In this document: positions 10,206-46,743 of the stretch, one piece after another | Numbering within the stretch: position 1 is the first letter of the stretch | Layout: each line of letters starts with the position of its first letter | From: a virus | Length of the DNA: 64,000 bases | Reading direction: 5' to 3' (one strand) | Virus record (IMG/VR): IMGVR_UViG_3300046318_000529 | Span: 4,190-68,189 of that record | The notes under the pieces: model-generated | The model's database searches: none | What the model was told of the DNA's origin: nothing | The model's input: the letters and a program-made list of their open reading frames with translations, nothing else | Program-made: the position numbers and the translations under genes

Positions 10206-12509
10206 ATGTCGCCAATCGAAAAACAAATAATTGCTGAGAAAGAGATACTCGATTTAGGTGTATCTAAACTTAAGGAAGTAGCTCTAGAAACTCTCAACGG
10301 AGAGGAAGGGTGGTTACATTCTTATGTCAGGGAATTAGTTTGGCCACTGTCTTTAGTGATACAGGATAGGTTTGAGGCAGAAGATAAAAGAGGAGGGGCA
10401 GGAAGGAAGACCTTATTTTACACCTTACTTAAAGAGGGGTTTGATCCTTTTGCCATATCTGTTTGTGTTCTTAACGCGACAATAAAAAGTGCGATACAAG
10501 AGAGGATACTCTTAACAATCTTATCGGGGGAGATAGGCAATAACATACAGGACTATTTTGGTAAAAAAATAACTAAATTCAATAAAATAGGACTAGGTGT
10601 AACTTTGCTTCACTCTCTTTCAGTTTCTTCACCAGGACTTTTTGAACTTGAGAAGGATATGGCTACAGGTACGGCAATTTACATGGTACAATTTAAAAGT
10701 TGTAGTAGTTTTAAAACCATAAAAAAATGTATTTCTCTTATATTGGGGAGGTATAGCCCTATGTCTGTTCCTCCTAAAACTTGGACAACAAGTAAAGAGG
10801 GTGGGTACCTATCGAGTGACTTATCTAAAAAAGCAACACTAGTAAGAAAAAGGAGTTCTGAAGCATATGAGAGTGTTTATAGTTATGAAGCAATGCCAGA
10901 TGTCTATGATTCAGTCAACTACATACAATCAGTACCTTACAGAATAAACAGTTTTATTTATGACGCGTTCACAAAAGCAGTGAGAAAGGGATTGAAAGTC
11001 AAAAACCTCCCAGCTTGCAAGCCTCTTACTTTATACTCTTATCCTCTACCAAAAAAACTAACTAAAGATAAGATGACAGAGGAACAAAGAGGTGTTCTTA
11101 AGAAGTGGATGACTGTTAATGGGCACATCAGGAAGGAGAAACAAAGATACCAATCAAAGATGTTCAACATAAAGATCATTAAAGAGGTTTGCGGTAAACT
11201 CCTTAACGAGGGAGACTTCTATTTCCCCCACAACCTAGATTATAGGGGGAGAATATATCCTGTTCCTGTTATTTTTAATCTTCACAGTCTAGACTATGTA
11301 AGGGCTATGTTGTTGTTTTCAGAAGAGAAAGCCCTCAAAAATGAGGAGGGTGTTAAATGGTTAGCAGTCCATGGTGCAAACTGTTTCGGGGTGGATAAAG
11401 AGTCATATGAAGACAGGGAGAGATGGGTAAAAGATAATGAGATGGCTATTCTTTTCGCGTACAGAGAACCTATGGCCTCTACTTTTTGGCACAAAGCTAA
11501 AGACCCTTTTCAGTTTCTAGCGTTTTGTAAAGAGTGGGCAGGGTATTGCAAGTTTGGTTATGGGTACAAAACAGGGCTGCCTATTGGGGTGGATGCAACT
11601 TGTTCTGGTTTGCAACATTACAGCGCTATGTTAAAAGACCCTGTAGGGGCTAGGTATGTTAACATCCTGCCGTCAAATAAACCCCAAGATATATATCAAG
11701 AAGTGGCTAATGTACTTGTCAAAAAACTAGAAGAGCTGGTGGCCTCAGGGGCTATACAAGACTCAGAAGAGGCTAAAAAATGGCTGGCACTAGGGATTAA
11801 TAGGAGTACTACTAAGAGGGTGGTTATGACAACTGTCTACAGTTTAACCCAATACGCATCTAGACAATATATTGAAGAGTACATAATAGACACCAACAAA
11901 GATGCCTTTATAGATACCTTTAAGGCCAGTTTATGGTTGTCGCCTTTTCTTTGGAAAGCCGTCACAGAGGTGATAAAAGGTGCAAGGGTAGCTATGGATT
12001 ACCTTAAAATGTGTACAAAAGACCTATCTAAGATGCAGGAAGGGATAATATGGCAGGTTCCTAGTGGTTTTATATCCCACCAAAAATGTATGAAGAAAGA
12101 GAAAAAAGAAGTCAAGTGTGATTTTGGAGACAGGAGGATATCTCTCACTATCTATGATGACTCAGACAAGATAAACTCAAGTAAACAAGTTAATGCAGTT
12201 TGCCCTAATATTATCCACAGCCTAGATGCCTGTCATCTAATGATGGTTGCTAATAGGTCTAAAGGGGAGGGTTTGTCAGGGTTCGGTGCTATACATGATT
12301 GTTTTTTTACGCACCCTAGTGATGTAGGTGTTTTACAGAAGGTTATAAGAGAGTCTTTTGTGGACATGTACCATGAAAGTTCTTTTTTAGAAGATTTTAA
12401 GGTCTTCTTAGAATATAAATATAACATAAAACTACCTCAAGTACCTGTAGATGATAGTTTTACCCTCAACCTAAGAGAGGTCTTACAAAGCCCTTATTTT
12501 TTCTGCTAG
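10206..12509 (+). CDS. T7-like single-subunit DNA-directed RNA polymerase
   Basis: PMSVPPKTW, DYRGRIY, DATCSGLQH, RSTTKRVVMTTVY, PNIIHSLDA, IHDCF, SPYFF. Confidence 0.97.
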   Translation: MSPIEKQIIAEKEILDLGVSKLKEVALETLNGEEGWLHSYVRELVWPLSLVIQDRFEAEDKRGGAGRKTLFYTLLKEGFDPFAISVCVLNATIKSAIQERILLTILSGEIGNNIQDYFGKKITKFNKIGLGVTLLHSLSVSSPGLFELEKDMATGTAIYMVQFKSCSSFKTIKKCISLILGRYSPMSVPPKTWTTSKEGGYLSSDLSKKATLVRKRSSEAYESVYSYEAMPDVYDSVNYIQSVPYRINSFIYDAFTKAVRKGLKVKNLPACKPLTLYSYPLPKKLTKDKMTEEQRGVLKKWMTVNGHIRKEKQRYQSKMFNIKIIKEVCGKLLNEGDFYFPHNLDYRGRIYPVPVIFNLHSLDYVRAMLLFSEEKALKNEEGVKWLAVHGANCFGVDKESYEDRERWVKDNEMAILFAYREPMASTFWHKAKDPFQFLAFCKEWAGYCKFGYGYKTGLPIGVDATCSGLQHYSAMLKDPVGARYVNILPSNKPQDIYQEVANVLVKKLEELVASGAIQDSEEAKKWLALGINRSTTKRVVMTTVYSLTQYASRQYIEEYIIDTNKDAFIDTFKASLWLSPFLWKAVTEVIKGARVAMDYLKMCTKDLSKMQEGIIWQVPSGFISHQKCMKKEKKEVKCDFGDRRISLTIYDDSDKINSSKQVNAVCPNIIHSLDACHLMMVANRSKGEGLSGFGAIHDCFFTHPSDVGVLQKVIRESFVDMYHESSFLEDFKVFLEYKYNIKLPQVPVDDSFTLNLREVLQSPYFFC

Positions 12510-22070: not shown

Positions 22071-23390
22071 ATGGCCGATATAGATCAAGTCATTACAGTC
22101 AATATCTCTAGGGAAACTTCTGCCGTTAGTCAAGTAGGCTTCGGTACAGGTATGTTCCTAGGTGATCATAGACGTTTTATCGAAAGATACAAATCTTATA
22201 AAAGTGCCGCAGAAGTATTAGCAGATGGTTTTGCATCAACAGATGCAGAGTACATTGTTGCTACTAAATTCTTCGGACAAGAACTTAAGCCAACGAAACT
22301 AGCTATTGGCCGCAGAAAGGCTGTTGATATTGCTACGTTAACTTTCTCAGCAGCAGTTTCAGGAACATCTTATAGCGTCACTGTTAATGGTGTTGTACTG
22401 AGTTATACTGCTGCTGGCATCATGACAGCCATTGCTGTTGCTGCTGCTTTTGAAACAGCTAATGCTGCTGGGTTTGTCACTGCTGGTATTACGTTCAGTG
22501 ATGCTGCTGCTGATGGCACTGCTACCATTACACCTACTGTTGCTGCTACACCTATTTCAATAGTTGGTGAGACATCTACTATTGTTATTGTAAACACGTA
22601 CACAGAAACATTGACAGATGCACTAGCTGCTGTTGCTGACGAAAACTCAGACTTCTTTGTAGTTATGGCTAAGTCACACATCAAAGCTGACCAACTTGAG
22701 TTGGCAACGGTTGTTGAGTCTATGGACAGAATATATGTTACATCATCTTCTGATGTTAACATTAAAAACCAATCAGCTGTAGTTGATACTACATCTATTG
22801 CAAGGGCCTTGAAAGATGGCTCTTACAACAATACCGCTCTTATGTATTCAGCTGTAGCTAACAGCCAATACCCTGAAGCAGCTTTTGTCGGCTATAACCT
22901 AAGCTACCAACCTGGTGAAAATACCTGGAAGTTTAAAACCCTTTCTGGAATCACTGTTGACAGTTTAACAACCACACAGATCAACAACATTAAAGCTAAA
23001 TACTGTAACTACTACACCAACATTCGTAATATTAATATTACATCTGAAGGCGTTACGTCATCATCTGAATTTTTGGATGTAACGGTAGGAGTGATGTGGT
23101 TTAAGGCTCGTTTAGCTGAAAGATTGTTCAACCTATTGATTAACGCACCTAAAATTCCTTATACCGCTGCTGGATTGGCTGCTGTACAAGCAGAAGTTCT
23201 TGGCCAACGTCAAGAGGGTATTGCATCTGGTTTCCTATCAGGAAGCAAGTCAGATTTAACAATAGTACCTAACATGAAAGATGTCTCATTTGCTGATAAA
23301 GCTACGAGAACATTAAACAATGTTAAGTTTGAATACAAATTAGCAGGCGCTGTACATTTTATCAATGTAGCCGGATCAGTTGTACTTTAA
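22071..23390 (+). CDS. contractile tail sheath (DUF3383)
   Basis: ITVNISRET, FFGQ..P, TWKFKTLSGI, KIPYT..G, LAGAVH. Confidence 0.9.
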   Translation: MADIDQVITVNISRETSAVSQVGFGTGMFLGDHRRFIERYKSYKSAAEVLADGFASTDAEYIVATKFFGQELKPTKLAIGRRKAVDIATLTFSAAVSGTSYSVTVNGVVLSYTAAGIMTAIAVAAAFETANAAGFVTAGITFSDAAADGTATITPTVAATPISIVGETSTIVIVNTYTETLTDALAAVADENSDFFVVMAKSHIKADQLELATVVESMDRIYVTSSSDVNIKNQSAVVDTTSIARALKDGSYNNTALMYSAVANSQYPEAAFVGYNLSYQPGENTWKFKTLSGITVDSLTTTQINNIKAKYCNYYTNIRNINITSEGVTSSSEFLDVTVGVMWFKARLAERLFNLLINAPKIPYTAAGLAAVQAEVLGQRQEGIASGFLSGSKSDLTIVPNMKDVSFADKATRTLNNVKFEYKLAGAVHFINVAGSVVL

Positions 23391-23402: not shown

Positions 23403-23843
23403 ATGGCATACGACAAAACACGTCAATACAGCCCTTCAGATATTAAATTTATCTTTGGCGGTGTTGAGATTACTGGCTTAGCTGACGGTACCTTTTTAGG
23501 TCTCGAATTCGGCTCTGACAGGTTCATGAAAACGGTAGGAGCTGATGGCTCTGTTGTCCGTACAAGATCAGCAGATGAAAGTGCTGTTATTACTTTAACA
23601 CTCCTCCAAAGCTCTATATCTAACGATATTTTAAATGCTTTTGATGCAGCTGATTTTGAAGGGTTAACAGGCGCTCTACCTATGATCATCAAAGATGCAA
23701 ATGGTAACAGCTTATATACAGCTGACAAATGCTGGATCTCTAAGCGTCCTTCTGTTGAGTTCGGTAAAGAGCTTGGCACGAGAGCATGGGAATTCACTGT
23801 TGACCATGTATTCGCTATCACTGGTTCTTCTAATCAGTTATAA
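23403..23843 (+). CDS. tail tube protein
   Basis: YSP, ITGLADG, VGADG, ITLTLLQSS.SN, R.WEF. Confidence 0.88.
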   Translation: MAYDKTRQYSPSDIKFIFGGVEITGLADGTFLGLEFGSDRFMKTVGADGSVVRTRSADESAVITLTLLQSSISNDILNAFDAADFEGLTGALPMIIKDANGNSLYTADKCWISKRPSVEFGKELGTRAWEFTVDHVFAITGSSNQL

Positions 23844-23858
23844 TAAATAATGATGCGA

Positions 23859-24135
23859 GTCAGATATGTTGGCAACAACATTACATCACACCACCTGAAA
23901 AGGTCATCTCCTAGAGAGCTGGCCTTGACAGGTCAGCCAGTGGCGGTAAGGGTGATCTGTGCAGTCCCCGCACTTGGGATGGCCTGTGAGACAGGTGAAG
24001 GTGTGGTTAACCCCGCTAGAGATCGCATCTCTAGTCTGACGTCACTAAGCTATATGTTGTTACTGTTTATCGGGGGCAACATTTAGTGACGTTTCTTTCA
24101 ATGCTCACCTGTAATAGGGTGGGCATTATTTTTTT
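23859..24135 (+). ncRNA. putative large structured non-coding RNA
   Basis: GC-enriched intergenic segment made of nested perfect helices, two GNRA tetraloops and a terminal intrinsic terminator. Confidence 0.6.
24100..24135 (+). terminator. rho-independent terminator
   Basis: AATGCTCACCT...GGGTGGGCATT followed by ATTTTTTT. Confidence 0.75.
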
Positions 24136-24136
24136 G

Positions 24137-24165
24137 TTGACAACACACCTGTATCAATTTATAAT
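24137..24165 (+). promoter_or_regulatory. consensus sigma70 promoter
   Basis: TTGACA-17 nt-TATAAT, perfect match. Confidence 0.8.
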
Positions 24166-24209
24166 TTTCTTGTCTAGGGCAATTACAAATTAACACCAAA
24201 GAGGCGTTT

Positions 24210-24839
24210 ATGATTTTTCCTTTTAAAATAGAATACGAAGGGTATTTAACACAATCAAAACTTCTGGGGATCTTAAAACAAATACCAGAAATAACATTCC
24301 TTGGGGAGGAGGTTAAAGTTAGCCCTAAGTCCAGGAGGAGATGGGACATGTTGTTTAAGAAAGGTGAACAGGTATTAGCAATAGAGTTTGATGGGGACAG
24401 TCACTACCAAAACTCATTAGTATCTAAATCAGACAAAGAGAAGAACAAAGAAGCAGAGTCACAAGGGATAACAGTGGTTAGGGTTCCTTTCTTTATACAA
24501 CTGGACAGTGATGTTTTTGAAATACTTTTTGGTTTCAGGCCTTCTGTTGAGATATTGAACAATTTTCCTAGTGGTTTCATAACAACAAAAACATTCCCTT
24601 GTTCTTTCGGTGATATAGGCATTTCTAGACTTTTCCATGAAGTTAAAGACATGCCAGAAAAAACAAAGAAAGAGGTAGTGCAGAGTTTGATTGATAGGTC
24701 TTTAGTCTATGGAGAGGAATATGTGTGGCCCCCTTCCTTTAAAAGGACAGCGATAGGGATAATTGAGGAGTTCGGAGGAGAAGAAAAGGATTATTCCTTA
24801 AAAGAAGACCTTGACATTTTCTTCAATGTACTACAATAG
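24210..24839 (+). CDS. PD-(D/E)XK Vsr/DUF559-like endonuclease domain protein (moron)
   Basis: RWDM...LAIEFDGDSHY...DKEKN..A...GITVVRVPF. Confidence 0.72.
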   Translation: MIFPFKIEYEGYLTQSKLLGILKQIPEITFLGEEVKVSPKSRRRWDMLFKKGEQVLAIEFDGDSHYQNSLVSKSDKEKNKEAESQGITVVRVPFFIQLDSDVFEILFGFRPSVEILNNFPSGFITTKTFPCSFGDIGISRLFHEVKDMPEKTKKEVVQSLIDRSLVYGEEYVWPPSFKRTAIGIIEEFGGEEKDYSLKEDLDIFFNVLQ

Positions 24840-24850
24840 ATTAAATAAAA

Positions 24851-24879
24851 TTGACAAAGTTTGTATAACATAGTAAAAT
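24851..24879 (+). promoter_or_regulatory. sigma70-like promoter re-starting the tail operon
   Basis: TTGACA-17 nt-TAAAAT. Confidence 0.6.
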
Positions 24880-24912: not shown

Positions 24913-25284
24913 ATGATAAAGTTGTGCGAAGTAAATATTGATGGCAAGTACTATAGCTTTAACCAATACACGGCGTCTAAAGGGCTTAACATTCTTAAGC
25001 GTGTCGCTAAAGTAGCAGGCCCAGCTATTATAACTGCTATGCAAGAAGGCAGGGGTTTCGGATTAGATCTTCTCCGTGATGCCGCTCAAGAGCTTGTTAT
25101 GGGCCTTGACCAAGAAGACCTAGGACAACTATGTAAAGACATCTTAGCTGATGTAAAAATCGATAACAAGCCTATTTCCTTTGACCTCCACTATGGTGCT
25201 AACTACAGAGAACTGTTCAAAGCAGTTTTTGAAGTACTCAAAGGTAACTTCTCTGATTTTTTGGAACAAAAAGATTCTCAGTAG
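24913..25284 (+). CDS. tail assembly chaperone (gpG-like)
   Basis: Between tube and tape measure; FDLHYGANY...NFSDFL; AGGAG RBS. Confidence 0.75.
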   Translation: MIKLCEVNIDGKYYSFNQYTASKGLNILKRVAKVAGPAIITAMQEGRGFGLDLLRDAAQELVMGLDQEDLGQLCKDILADVKIDNKPISFDLHYGANYRELFKAVFEVLKGNFSDFLEQKDSQ

Positions 25285-27443: not shown

Positions 27444-28510
27444 TAAATATAGGCTCGCGGCATAGTAATATGTCGAAAAATAAATCTCTTTAATTGCTGG
27501 AAACACTTGTTAAGTGTTGACTACTAACTAGGATAGTGATAACCTAGACAGTAATAATGTCAACAATAGAGTCAATCAGCAGGTAAGAATCTTAGAAAAC
27601 TCTGAACACCAGTAGGAGGATAAATGAACGAGAAAATTATAGACGGTAAGATAGTCAGAATGAGCAATAAGCACGAAGGGTATGGTTCCACTAGATGTGG
27701 GATTGTTTATTTGTGGTCAACTGAGAAAAAGGCAAGAGTGCACCTTAGGGGTGGTGGGAATTCTACACCATACCACTGCTTTAATTGCCGTAAGAATGGC
27801 AAAAACAACTCAGCCTTCGTGCATGTAGTTGTTGCGGATTGTTGGGTATTTAATGATTCCCCAGATCACAAAATAGTGGTCAACCATATTGACGGGGACA
27901 AGAACAACAATCATTCAGAAAACCTAGAGTGGTGTACAAGGTCTCAAAACCAAAGGCACGCCTTTAGTACAGGACTATCCCCTAAAGGTGCTGATCACCC
28001 TAACTCCTACCTAGACCCTAACCAAGTCCATTTAATCTGCCAAAGACTACAAGAGGGGTGGAGGGTGAAGGACATAACAGACAGTTTTGGCGTGCCCCAG
28101 ACTGTCATAAAAAAGATAAAAAGTGGTGATTCTTATATTAATATAAGAAGTTTATACATTATAGAAAACAAATTTTATTATTCACTATCTGAAAGTACAG
28201 TAAGATGGGTGTGTGAAAGGATGAAGGAAGGTCTCTCTGATAAGAAGATATCTTTAATCTCCTCTAACAAAAACTTAAGCGTTATCGAAGTAAGAAGGAT
28301 ACGCAATAAAATCAGGTATAAAACTATATCTGATGAATATCTCTAAGATTAAACTCCAACGATCAGCCGAAAGGCGTAGGGCCAAGTGGCCCGAAATGGG
28401 AGACAACGTAACAAGTAATGTTGACGTTGAAGATATGATCTGGTCTGCATGGAGACATGCAGCAGCCTTTACAGGCGGGTAATGTTTAACGCACATTATT
28501 GAACAAAACG
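27444..28510 (+). mobile_element. group I intron (IA2-like) carrying HNH ORF
   Basis: P1 GAGCU/GGCUC with U.G; P AAUUGCUGGAAA; Q AAUCAGCAGG; P7 GAUCA/UGAUC; P7.1/7.2 hairpins; S AAGAUAUGAUCU; P9 hairpins; terminal G; splicing restores frame. Confidence 0.9.
27624..28346 (+). CDS. intron-encoded HNH homing endonuclease
   Basis: VHVVVA..W, VNHIDGDKNNNHSENLEWCTRSQNQRHA, HTH-like C-terminus; AGGAGG RBS. Confidence 0.9.
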   Translation: MNEKIIDGKIVRMSNKHEGYGSTRCGIVYLWSTEKKARVHLRGGGNSTPYHCFNCRKNGKNNSAFVHVVVADCWVFNDSPDHKIVVNHIDGDKNNNHSENLEWCTRSQNQRHAFSTGLSPKGADHPNSYLDPNQVHLICQRLQEGWRVKDITDSFGVPQTVIKKIKSGDSYINIRSLYIIENKFYYSLSESTVRWVCERMKEGLSDKKISLISSNKNLSVIEVRRIRNKIRYKTISDEYL

Positions 28511-29735
28511 AAAAGGTCAAATAGCTGAATCGTTACCTGGTGCTTTCAAACAAGCAGCAGATTCGATGGGTATTACGACCGCTGAACTTACTCAAAAACT
28601 TAAAGATGGTGCTTTAGACTCTAAAGAGTTCCTAGGCAATTTCTCTGTATACTTAAAAAACTCTACCGATGAAAAATTTAAAAAGATACTAGGCTCCTAT
28701 GCTTTCTCTCTAAAAAGACTAAATGTAGCTAGGGAAGAGTTCATTAGAGGTATTGCAGATAACGGCGGTGAGGAAGTTTTTCAACAACTTACTGAGTTTG
28801 CTATTTACCTACTACAAATACTTAAACCTGTTACAGCTGCACTTGCTGCTGCTTTCAAATGGTTCTCTAGGATATTCTTTGGGCCACTAGGAAGAGCGAT
28901 AAAAAGGGTAAGTGATGTAATTGGGGATATGGCAGAAAACGCTGGGGAAGGCAGTAAAGAATTAAGGAAAATTAAATCTGAGCTAGCCAGCATGATAGTT
29001 GTTATGACACCTATAATTTTCATGTTTAGAAAATTCTTCCTAGGATTATTAGTTTTCGAGCTTATGGTGGCTATTTGGGATGACCTGAATATGTACATCA
29101 AGGACGGTAAGGGACTATTAGGTGAGTTCATGGATAAAATGGACGACCCTAAGTGGCGGGAAGAACACCCTATAATTGACACATTTATGACAGCATATGT
29201 GTTGTTAGGTGAACTGATAGACTCAGTTGATAAACTCTTCAAAAACCAGGAGTTCTTAGATAACCCATTAGTCAGGGCGTTTACAGATATAGAAGAAACT
29301 ATTAACACAATTATAGAACTTCTAACTAAAACTCTTCCAGCAGCATGGTCTTACTTTAAAGGTTCTTTAGGGTACGGCACTGATGAAGAAGTTGCAGATG
29401 CTCAAAAAACTAACGAAGAAAAAAGTACTCCTGAATATAGAGATAGGATAAAAGCCCAGGCTACTAAAAGGAAAGTAGGAGGTATTAATAATAGCAGTCT
29501 TCTCCCATCAAAAGAGACTCTTATTAAAGGTATTCTAGGTGACAATAAACTAGGCAACTGGGCTGTTAACACCCTTAGCGGTGAGACTCAAACTAATAAA
29601 AATGTCACTGACATCAATATGTATGTCAAAGTAGAGGGGGCATCACAAATGGATAAGACCACAGCTAATCAGATAGCCAAGGAAGTCTCTGGCAGAGTTA
29701 CTAATCAGGCGGCGTTGGCAGGAGTTCCACAATGA
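28511..29735 (+). CDS. tape measure protein, exon 2
   Basis: Continues KGQIAESLPGAFKQAADSMG; spliced product about 1057 aa. Confidence 0.85.
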
Positions 29736-35242: not shown

Positions 35243-36052
35243 ATGGAAGACTTGAGGGGCTTGAGGTTTGGTAGCAGGGTGGTGACAAACACTCCCTCTG
35301 TGATGTTTGGCAACCAAAGAAAATACCAGTGCCTGTGCGATTGTGGTTACTCTTCTTGGGTTTTAGCTAATAACCTTAAAAGAAAGGAGTATAAAAGTTG
35401 TGTTAAGTGTCGAGAGAGAAAACCTCCAATACCATTATACGGCATGAAGGTAGGTAAAAAACAGATAGTAAGTGAAGTGCCAAATAAGATAGGAAGAAGG
35501 GTTTTATGGACATATCTTTGTGATTGTGGCTACCAAGGTGTAACTAACTCCCACAAATTCCTTAAAAACACAAATAAAGATTGCCCAAGCTGTTCAGGGA
35601 TTTTAAGTAAAGGTGAAGATGCCGCTAATAAATCTCCTTTATGGAGAAGATGGGACAGTATTAAATCTAGGTGCTACAACCTTAACTCTCCTAACTATAA
35701 ATACTACGGAGGTAGAGGGATCACTCTTGAAGAGTATTTACATGATTTTAGGAATTTTGAAAAATGGGTAATAGAGAATTTAGGGCCACCTCAAAAAGGG
35801 TTGAGTTTAGATAGGGTGGATAATGAGAAAGGATATCAACGAGGGAATTTAAGATGGGCCACAGGAACTGAACAAAACCTTAATAGAAGGAGAGGTTTCT
35901 TTACCTTAATCCCAACCTCAGACGGGAAAGACATCACTGTAAGGGAGTATGCAAGCCTCCATTCCCTAACAGCCCAAACAGTAAGGTATAAAATGAAAAT
36001 AGGCGAGATAAGCTTTAAACAACCCACACTAGGAGAAGGTAAATGCCACTAA
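35243..36052 (+). CDS. free-standing HNH homing endonuclease
   Basis: DLRGLRFG, CLCDCG, WDSIKSRC, YGGRGI, SLDRVDNEKGY..GNLRWAT..EQ..NRR. Confidence 0.88.
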   Translation: MEDLRGLRFGSRVVTNTPSVMFGNQRKYQCLCDCGYSSWVLANNLKRKEYKSCVKCRERKPPIPLYGMKVGKKQIVSEVPNKIGRRVLWTYLCDCGYQGVTNSHKFLKNTNKDCPSCSGILSKGEDAANKSPLWRRWDSIKSRCYNLNSPNYKYYGGRGITLEEYLHDFRNFEKWVIENLGPPQKGLSLDRVDNEKGYQRGNLRWATGTEQNLNRRRGFFTLIPTSDGKDITVREYASLHSLTAQTVRYKMKIGEISFKQPTLGEGKCH

Positions 36053-46074: not shown

Positions 46075-46743
46075 ATGAGACGTGATTATGACTCTGTTTT
46101 AGAAAGTGCAGAAAACTTTCTAAGGGTAGAGATAGGGAGTAGTATAGTTAAAAGCCTCATACCTGCCAGAGTAGGAGGTAGGTGGCTTTTTGAGTGCCAA
46201 TGTCAAATTTGTAGCAAGGTTAGCCTTATCCGGGTGTCTGATATAGAGAAAGAACTGTATAAAGGTTGCCTTTTGTGCAGGCCTAAAAAGAGAAAAGATA
46301 ATGCGGTGAAGAGACACCCTCTCTACCCTACATGGTCTAACATCAAAGCCAGGACCCTCAAAAAATCTAACCATAATTACCATCTCTACGGTGGCAGAGG
46401 TATAAAAATGGAGGAGAGTTGGCTTCAGGATTTTTGGAAATTTGTCAAAGATATAGAAGGTACTTTAGGGGTTAAACCTTCCCTCTCTTATTCTTTAGAT
46501 AGAATAGATAATAATATAGGATATTTCGTTCATAACCTTAGGTGGGCAACTACTAAAGAACAGGCCCAGAACAGAAGAGGATCTCCTCCTAGAAGGAGGT
46601 TTGTTGATTTTGAAGGGAAGAAGATAGGTTTGAGAGAACTTTCAGAGTTGCTAATGGTACCTTTGAATTTAGTGGTATCAAGTTATATTAATCAAGGATG
46701 GAGAAACTCAAACCAATTCACCACACTACAGGAGTCTGTATGA
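46075..46743 (+). CDS. free-standing HNH homing endonuclease
   Basis: HPLYPTWSNIKAR, YGGRGI, SLDRIDNNIGY..NLRWAT..EQ..NRR. Confidence 0.88.
   Translation: MRRDYDSVLESAENFLRVEIGSSIVKSLIPARVGGRWLFECQCQICSKVSLIRVSDIEKELYKGCLLCRPKKRKDNAVKRHPLYPTWSNIKARTLKKSNHNYHLYGGRGIKMEESWLQDFWKFVKDIEGTLGVKPSLSYSLDRIDNNIGYFVHNLRWATTKEQAQNRRGSPPRRRFVDFEGKKIGLRELSELLMVPLNLVVSSYINQGWRNSNQFTTLQESV

Follow-up and report, generated by a model that had tools for sequence, protein, structure and literature searches.

The window analysed here is a stretch of 64,000 nucleotides (nt) that covers most of the 68-kb IMG/VR virus record IMGVR_UViG_3300046318_000529, which belongs to a phage whose gene set comprises a contractile tail, a single-subunit RNA polymerase, DNA polymerase I, a primase-helicase, ribonucleotide reductase, PhoH and MazG. 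In its tail operon, the tube gene is followed by a 285-nt GC-enriched stretch, an intrinsic terminator, a promoter, a 209-amino-acid (aa) open reading frame (ORF) and a second promoter-like site, after which the tail assembly chaperone gene begins (Table 1). The GC-enriched stretch is the main subject of this report and appears to encode a folded RNA that is very probably a divergent member of the SroH family; the 209-aa ORF beside it is nuclease-like. Since the tube and chaperone genes match their families nearly end to end, neither of them is split. Contigs from three further freshwater runs carry the identical arrangement with 0 differences and no joints, which indicates that it is not an assembly artefact, and in the parts covered by the contigs of the four runs no joints pointing to strain variants without the RNA or without the nuclease gene were detected. 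Viral contigs yielded one relative of the tube protein, the distant L002 (36% identity), in which about 400 nt containing a reverse-strand ORF separate the tube and chaperone genes, an arrangement that says little on whether the two are normally adjacent. The RNA and the nuclease gene may plausibly have been inserted into the tail operon.

The segment between tube and chaperone has a GC content of 0.527 at 23850-24074, compared with about 0.34-0.45 in its flanks. An initial annotation, made from the sequence alone, that had described a GC-enriched non-coding segment (23852-24136) built of helices is borne out. Each helix named there can be located by reading the sequence. An outer stem pairs GTCAGA (23859-64) with TCTGAC (24035-40) and an inner stem pairs CACACC (23887-92) with GGTGTG (24000-05). 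The small hairpins are ATGTTG-GCAA-CAACAT (23866-81), ACCT-GAAA-AGGT (23893-904), TCTC-CTA-GAGA and GCTGGCCT-TGAC-AGGTCAGC, to which are added GTCCC/GGGAT, CCTG-TGAGA-CAGG, CTAGAGAT-CGC-ATCTCTAG (24016-34) and a long hairpin at 24041-90. The terminator and the promoters, located by a consensus scan, likewise lie where the initial annotation had placed them, as does the gene for the 209-aa nuclease. On the plus strand, region 23850-24135 has a folding energy of -111.1 kcal/mol, compared with -85.9 +/- 5.2 kcal/mol in 200 shuffles (z = -4.83, with 0 shuffles as good), and the minus strand gives a z of -2.77 against its shuffles. A structured non-coding RNA is supported by the plus-strand value, by a 78-aa ORF within the segment that belongs to no family, and by conserved bases that are read in differing frames.

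Comparison with Rfam, proposed as a check in the initial annotation, returned no match for the RNA: at the gathering threshold the window gave nothing for it, sroH included, and at E <= 10 the region 23700-24300 gave no sroH, just chance-level snoRNA, CRISPR and fstAT rows with E of 3-9. Hallmarks of transfer RNA (tRNA), transfer-messenger RNA (tmRNA) and introns are lacking, as the initial annotation had noted, for ARAGORN reports 0 genes in the window, the Intron_gpI model has no match at E <= 10, and the tube and chaperone genes are complete. A group I intron was accordingly rejected as the identity of the RNA, there being neither an Intron_gpI match at E <= 10 nor an interrupted host gene. 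The idea of an attP or integration site was also dropped, because no integrase occurs among the 34 annotated ORFs and the gene set is of the virulent type. Neither the 1.9-kb region nor the 82-nt phage core of the viral contig L005 matched any GenBank phage by BLAST.

Relatives were found by exact-pattern scans with conserved-looking stretches, which yielded the viral contigs L005, L006 and L232/L233, the metagenome contig L077 and a locus in a Cellvibrio genome (L128), and by a BLAST search of 401 genomes of the Cellvibrio order with the Cellvibrio copy as query, which added three further relatives. In these early relatives the first ~85 nt are common to all and the sequences then diverge. 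A covariance model, R1, was constructed from the window and eight homologues, with Escherichia coli left out, and it confirmed six more viral copies from a second pattern scan (L295, L296, L297, L299, L300 and L301). Candidates set aside were the chance pattern matches L003, L004, L234, L236-L238 and L275 (the last inside a protease gene), the loci L294 and L298, which have no R1 match, and nearly all of about 225 17-mer matches in metagenomes and genomes, discarded as chance.

The window RNA scores 74.3 bits on R1 (E 3e-17) and is the sole match in the 64-kb window, with the proviso that the window is itself among the building sequences of the model. E. coli sroH scores 40.3 bits on the same model and is the sole significant match in the 4.64-Mb K-12 chromosome (E 1.3e-6; next E 2.2). 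In the reverse direction, RF00372, the Rfam model of sroH, which gives 201 bits on E. coli sroH, matches 7/7 of the bacterial intermediates examined, at the same positions (45-59 bits, E 2e-11 to 8.5e-8), below its 80-bit gathering score. The earlier view that the RNA belongs to no known class is therefore not upheld: R1 links the window to E. coli sroH, RF00372 matches the intermediates, and covarying helices are shared. With high confidence, the first ~100 nt of the window RNA can be assigned by sequence and covariance comparison to the SroH family, as a divergent member overlooked by the curated model. The folded segment is a genuine feature, a further form of an RNA family that is known though unexplained, and not an RNA-nuclease system.

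The family architecture, from 5' to 3', comprises a GATGC leader, P1 (CAGA/UCUG), the P2 hairpin, an ACAUC junction, P3 and the 3' strand of P1. P2 has 5-7 bp and a short loop, mostly GNRA or UUCG, while P3 (CACC/GGUG) encloses P3a (ACCY-loop-RGGU), a 3-bp P3b (GCC-AGU-GGC in the phage type) and an invariant GGUAAG junction. An element parse recovered all core elements in the window and 12 other sequences; a 14th, L285, failed the automatic parse, and its elements were read by eye. The structure annotated by Rfam's sroH model is the terminator stem only, and the five-helix core is derived here. Into the junction between P3a and P3b the window RNA carries a 29-nt insertion that is missing from the other eight sequences of a nine-sequence alignment and whose length is no multiple of 3.

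Covariation among homologues, which the initial annotation had named as a check, is present. Across 20 model-aligned homologues, 92.0% of the cells in the five helices are paired, compared with 28-40% when the partners are slid; both partners vary in 17 of the 22 pairs, and 0/500 shuffles reach any of five measures. This alignment was fitted to the structure and its sequences are related, so that these figures overstate independence. An unfitted MAFFT alignment of nine sequences gives 90.4% of cells paired versus 32-42% slid, with 8 pairs changing on both sides. Compensatory changes in P1 include CAGA/UCUG, CUGA/UCAG (L077) and CGGA/UCCG (L232); the closing pair of P3a is U-A, C-G or A-U; P3b alternates between GCC/GGC and GGC/GCC; and P3, the weakest helix (77% paired), occurs as CACC/GGUG, CGCU/GGCG and CGUA/GACG. 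The retention of this core in at least four distinct viral records and a metagenome contig argues for selection.

Table 1. Features of the window at and around the folded segment
Feature	Position	Strand	Basis or remark
Sheath gene	22071-23390		Family match
Tube gene	23403-23843		Family match over nearly full length
TATAAT hexamer, possible -10 box	23839..23844	+	7 nt upstream of conserved GATGC; overlaps tube stop codons; sequence reading only
Conserved 5' leader GATGCGAGT	23852..23860	+	Family consensus GATGCRA; two alignments and element parse
Probable SroH-family core	23861..23959	+	Model R1 match and covariation
P1 of core, CAGA/TCTG	23861-64 / 23956-59	+	
P2 hairpin of core, GCAA loop	23866-81	+	
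Junction ACATCA of core	23883-88	+	
P3 of core, CACC/GGTG	23889-92 / 23951-54	+	
P3a of core, ACCT-GAAA-AGGT	23893-904	+	
Window-specific 29-nt insertion in P3a/P3b junction	23907..23935	+	Hairpins TCTC-CTA-GAGA and GCTGGCCT-TGAC-AGG...; flanked by GGTCA repeats
P3b of core, GCC-AGT-GGC	23936-44	+	
Junction GGTAAG of core	23945-50	+	
Phage-specific 3' extension	23960..24040	+	Hairpins GTGC/GCAC, CCTG-TGAGA-CAGG, CTAGAGAT-CGC-ATCTCTAG
Long bulged hairpin GTCACTAA...TTAGTGAC	24041..24090	+	Repeats P2 arms ATGTTG/CAACAT
Intrinsic terminator, 11-bp stem then T run	24100..24136 (stem scan 24100-24127)	+	Consensus scan
Sigma-70-type promoter TTGACA-17-TATAAT for nuclease gene	24137..24165	+	Consensus scan, 12/12
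209-aa nuclease-like gene	24210..24839	+	Profile, homologue and fold comparisons
Promoter-like site TTGACA-17-TAAAAT ahead of chaperone gene	24851..24879	+	Consensus scan, 11/12
Tail assembly chaperone gene	24913-25284		Family match over nearly full length
Tape measure gene	from 25495		Family match

Past P1, bacterial SroH RNAs continue with a covarying P4 hairpin, the motif CGAA and an intrinsic terminator. This bacterial 3' module is missing from the window, where P1 is followed by ~80 nt of further hairpins, the long hairpin and the terminator. The 3' extension holds a second possible 3' strand for P3 (GGUGUG, 24000-05) and a second possible 3' strand for P1 (UCUGAC, 24035-40), which are the distal strands of the "inner" and "outer" stems of the initial annotation; analogous distal strands occur in L005. 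The predicted minimum free energy (MFE) of the window RNA, -75.4 kcal/mol, is reached via long-range pairs, compared with -59.1 kcal/mol for both the family fold and the fold first proposed; every helix of the latter is present, but its exact global arrangement is not the predicted optimum and the overall topology is provisional. The 24041-24090 hairpin, whose arms repeat those of P2, could have arisen by duplication or could form an alternative pairing with P2. With regard to the 5' end, the promoter consensus scan detects no -35 partner for the TATAAT at 23839, and in the bacterial homologues L281 and L282 a -10-like hexamer precedes GATG by 9 nt.

In all of the first four bacterial loci, the RNA adjoins a protein of ~180 aa (p180). 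A local copy of Pfam gave no model match for three full-length p180 proteins (L246, L245 and L274), and PADLOC matched neither these three nor the window nuclease. A database search names p180 "heat-shock protein" or "stationary phase growth adaptation protein" and places it in family PF27200 (YjaZ), and a p180 profile aligns with E. coli YjaZ at an hhalign probability of 99.7. In the K-12 annotation, E. coli sroH (NC_000913.3, 4190327-4190487) is convergent with yjaZ/htrC. The 401 sampled genomes of the Cellvibrio order contain 12 yjaZ-like loci in 11 genomes, and the RNA lies within 1.5 kb of the yjaZ-like gene in eight of these 12 loci as well as in E. coli; the four loci without it have the most divergent proteins. 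Orientation varies among the eight, the RNA being upstream on the same strand in three and convergent downstream in five, as in E. coli. By locus, it was recorded as upstream on the same strand in L279, L281 and L282 and as downstream and convergent in L278, L280, L283, L284, L285 and L290, always at a distance of at most ~100 nt. From these arrangements, the RNA module appears to have flipped relative to yjaZ during evolution. Among the loci examined, L128 and L274 each have a serine recombinase gene at most ~1.3 kb away, the RNA of L245 has a tyrosine integrase gene at a distance of ~0.5 kb, and in some loci a nearby protein has, on inspection, a ParA-like N-terminus.

A YjaZ-like protein was found in 0/4 viral records searched (the window's own 68-kb record, L005, L232 and L006). 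The second-scan viral copies are mixed, with yjaZ adjacent in L296, L299 and L300 and missing from L295, L297 and L301; cores without yjaZ are present in L005, L077, L232, L295, L297 and L301 among phage and metagenome copies. Two of them have a tRNA gene at most ~150 nt from the RNA (L005, 1549-1635, minus strand; L077, 1312-1385, plus strand). The RNA core of L005 (1992-2073, minus strand) equals the chromosomal copy of Cellvibrio sp. OA-2007 (L128, 1492-1573, minus strand) at 81/82 positions; the two diverge completely just past P1, and the Cellvibrio yjaZ alongside is truncated (134-aa frame). The near-identity points to a putative recent exchange between phage and host at this locus.

In a published account (PMC5389530), passages on SroH describe its function as unknown, a deletion mutant as sensitive to envelope stress and the RNA as polyadenylated; others mention one in-vitro target, kbl (PMC6172242), and binding by PNPase (PMC13572404). 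YjaZ is poorly characterised (y-ome listing, PMC11551758). A literature search on SroH, yjaZ, htrC and SroH with phage found no title or abstract dealing with structure, YjaZ binding or phage copies. An RNA that binds a factor is suggested by a core that is conserved and rich in junctions, by close synteny with a single small protein and by the occurrence of orphan copies in phages, and the copying of a folded, conserved core by phages points to a protein- or RNA-binding role and not to ordinary antisense regulation.

On this basis, the segment may be the gene for a phage-borne orphan SroH copy that acts in trans as a mimic of the host SroH, a proposal for and against which the chances appear about equal. 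The plus strand would be transcribed from the weak -10 box at 23839 or else as the 3' end of the tube transcript, and the transcript would end at the intrinsic terminator (24100-24136). During infection, the conserved core would then be presented in trans to the host factor that binds chromosomal SroH. The best candidate for this factor would be YjaZ, which is encoded beside sroH in bacteria, so that host SroH would be imitated or titrated by the phage copy. The adjacent nuclease gene would be mobile in its own right, with a host-type promoter of its own, and would not be a partner of the RNA. Several points weigh against this proposal. At E <= 10 the window RNA is not among the matches of the curated Rfam model for sroH, and family membership consequently rests on R1 and the intermediate homologues. 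An interaction between SroH and YjaZ is suggested by synteny only, and the function and partner of SroH are given as unknown in the passages of PMC5389530, PMC6172242 and PMC13572404 that concern it. The promoter scan detects none upstream of the RNA, and a look through RNA runs found none that contains the stretch. The MFE structure replaces the family P1 and P3 by long-range pairings, the family fold being 16 kcal/mol costlier. Finally, some viral records carry the RNA and yjaZ together (L296, L299 and L300), so that orphan status is no general rule for phages.

A more specific version, which we consider unlikely, is that SroH is the RNA partner (an inhibitor or antitoxin-like regulator) of YjaZ and that the orphan phage cores are decoys neutralising YjaZ. 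YjaZ would then have a RelE/BrnT-like ribonuclease fold, and the SroH-YjaZ pair would be a mobile cassette, of toxin-antitoxin-like or defence type, with a patchy distribution. The predicted structure of the YjaZ-like protein from L274 (pLDDT 82.3) has no Foldseek match at E <= 0.001, the best being HigB2 (E 0.04-0.1). A wide structural search ranks BrnT best (Z 5.0), with RelE, YoeB, YafQ, HigB and ParE at Z 3.5-4.6, and 20 of the 22 top neighbours are RelE/ParE-superfamily or CdiA toxins, although their Z-scores are only 3.6-5.0 and values below 8 may reflect a common arrangement. The likeness of the modelled YjaZ to the RelE superfamily is a lead only. If true, the decoy mechanism would represent a natural RNA-based counter-defence and would give a first function to an E. 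coli small RNA and to a y-gene, both of them open questions for twenty years.

Type III toxin-antitoxin systems (ToxIN) place a folded RNA beside a small protein, and phages carry the RNA alone as antitoxin-RNA mimics (pseudo-ToxI). The likeness of the SroH loci to ToxIN lies in the mode of working only, with the RNA next to a small protein and a terminator between them in the same-strand loci L279, L281 and L282. Unlike ToxIN, there are no tandem repeats, the window having one R1 match (no tandem-repeat finder was used), YjaZ is not of the ToxN family, and the RNA is convergent with the gene in five loci and E. coli, not upstream of it. The resemblance to E. coli SroH extends over the GATGC leader, P1 (CAGA/TCTG), the P2 tetraloop hairpin, the ACATC junction, P3 around P3a and P3b, and the GGUAA(G/U) junction. 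In contrast to E. coli SroH, the window RNA falls below Rfam reporting, has no yjaZ neighbour, carries the junction insertion, has ~180 nt of other helices in place of the P4 hairpin, CGAA and terminator, and is located in the tail operon of a virulent-type phage. Three results bear on SroH and YjaZ: the conserved, covarying multi-helix SroH core, which Rfam's model leaves unannotated; the finding that outside enterobacteria, in the one order sampled, SroH still lies beside yjaZ (8/12 loci), with a recombinase gene near two of these loci; and the carriage of the core alone by phages, here in the middle of a tail operon. For annotation, an unknown structured RNA beside a phage nuclease is worth comparing with SroH by a structure-aware model, as the curated model misses such copies.

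Other explanations of the segment can be weighed against the proposed trans-acting mimic. It may be a cis-acting element of the 3' untranslated region (3'-UTR), with SroH homology marking its origin only, in which case the segment and its terminator would protect the abundant sheath/tube message from 3' exonucleases and limit transcription that runs on into the chaperone and tape-measure genes. Its position is suited to such a role, as it begins 9 nt past the tube stop with no upstream promoter found by the scan and ends in a strong terminator after which new promoters follow, and its MFE relies on window-specific long-range helices, not on the family fold. For these purposes, however, a plain terminator would suffice, while the window has kept the invariant unpaired motifs GATGC, ACATC and GGTAAG and the compensatory P3a pair, and other phage copies sit in quite other places, those of L005 and L077 being next to tRNA genes; this explanation appears unlikely. 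It is also improbable that the segment is a functionless passenger, part of an sroH locus from host or phage that was gained by illegitimate or endonuclease-stimulated recombination and is now decaying. The phage is rich in mobile nuclease genes, the L005 core and its Cellvibrio counterpart, alike at 81/82 positions, are a sign of apparent recent exchange, and the window copy has lost the bacterial 3' module, gained 29 nt and lacks yjaZ. Decay would nevertheless be hard to reconcile with five intact core helices and intact junction motifs, with an insertion placed in a junction and not in a helix, with an arrangement unchanged in contigs of three other runs, and with the recurrence of orphan copies in unrelated viral records.

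The initial annotation had suggested, among other possibilities, a mobile cassette in which the RNA serves the 209-aa nuclease as guide, antitoxin or cofactor and moves together with it, and the adjacency of the two on the same strand between two complete genes invites this idea. It is largely refuted and now appears highly improbable, as the RNA occurs without the nuclease, so that independent occurrence, which the initial annotation had named as refuting the link, is observed on the side of the RNA: tblastn found the nuclease in the flanks of 0/12 other RNA loci searched, and it is present in 0/4 whole records with the RNA (one bacterial genome and three viral records). In addition, a terminator and a full consensus promoter lie between the two, GC content is 0.53 in the RNA compared with 0.29-0.41 in the nuclease gene, and the conserved bacterial neighbour is yjaZ, whose product is unrelated to the nuclease (BLASTP E 45). 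There is hardly any likelihood that the 78-aa ORF (23850-24086) is a real protein gene. Its frame is open and ATG-initiated, but it matches no Pfam or PHROG family, the window-specific indel is 29 nt long and is followed by divergence of the window and L128 frames, the conserved bases are read as TSHH in the window and L128 and as DIPP in L245, and variation tracks base-pairing and not codons.

The neighbouring nuclease has four homologues at 44-47% identity, none of them in viral contigs, and in all five sequences D46, E59, D61 and H65 are invariant within a conserved pattern D...E-x-D-G-x-x-H. It scores 17.1 bits (E 0.0057) against the Pfam restriction-endonuclease family MTES_1575, whose cut-off is 38.2, and reaches E-values of 1.9e-5 and 5.4e-4 against PHROG HNH/intron nuclease families. 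The structural model is of middling quality (pLDDT 70.7), and its weak Foldseek matches to Hjc, Bax1 and I-Bth0305I all have E > 0.01, among them Hjc 2wiw_A (probability 0.98, TM 0.50 over 80 columns, E 0.09). The initial assignment as a PD-(D/E)XK or Vsr-like enzyme is weakly supported. I-Bth0305I and homing endonucleases of the Vsr/DUF559 and EDxHD types resemble the nuclease in small size, and the nuclease has its own promoter and sits between conserved phage genes; it differs from them in its sub-threshold MTES_1575 score, its high Foldseek E-values and its model confidence. It is probably a free-standing homing endonuclease with a restriction-endonuclease-like fold, separate from the RNA element, and its own host-type promoter in a phage rich in such genes makes this the ordinary reading.

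The 17-mer AGTGGCGGTAAGGGTGA (window 23940-23956) also occurs in L011, L014, L022, L040, L163, L189, L191 and L194, in the context GGCGGUAAGGGUGAAA followed by GGUGCGGUAAGAGC, which looks like that of bacterial RNase P RNA genes as judged by eye. Ten of 230 occurrences of the 17-mer pass a downstream-motif filter, with RNase P-like contexts. A relationship with RNase P was rejected, and the 17-mer is treated as a shared short motif, not homology; it may be a tertiary motif common to both RNAs or a coincidence.

The phage encodes a T7/N4-like single-subunit RNA polymerase (10206-12509; phrog_414, E 5e-196), here in combination with a contractile tail, and given this phage-encoded polymerase the sigma-70 promoters flanking the nuclease gene would be host-polymerase sites within the late operon. 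The phage is also unusually rich in mobile nuclease genes, with three HNH nuclease genes besides the 209-aa nuclease-like gene. The tape-measure ORF ends at residue 656, midway through a TMP_3 domain (profile positions 3-112 of 192; window 27466-28565). On the 3' side of its stop lie an HNH endonuclease gene (27624-28346) and then a match to a group I intron that falls below threshold (28240-28462; 37 bits, E 1.7e-7), beyond which tape-measure-like sequence picks up again, and the tape-measure gene is probably split by a group I intron with a homing endonuclease. The other two HNH endonuclease genes are located at 35243-36052, inside the baseplate/fibre region, and at 46075-46743, just before the endolysin (phrog_374, E 7e-44 and 7e-36).

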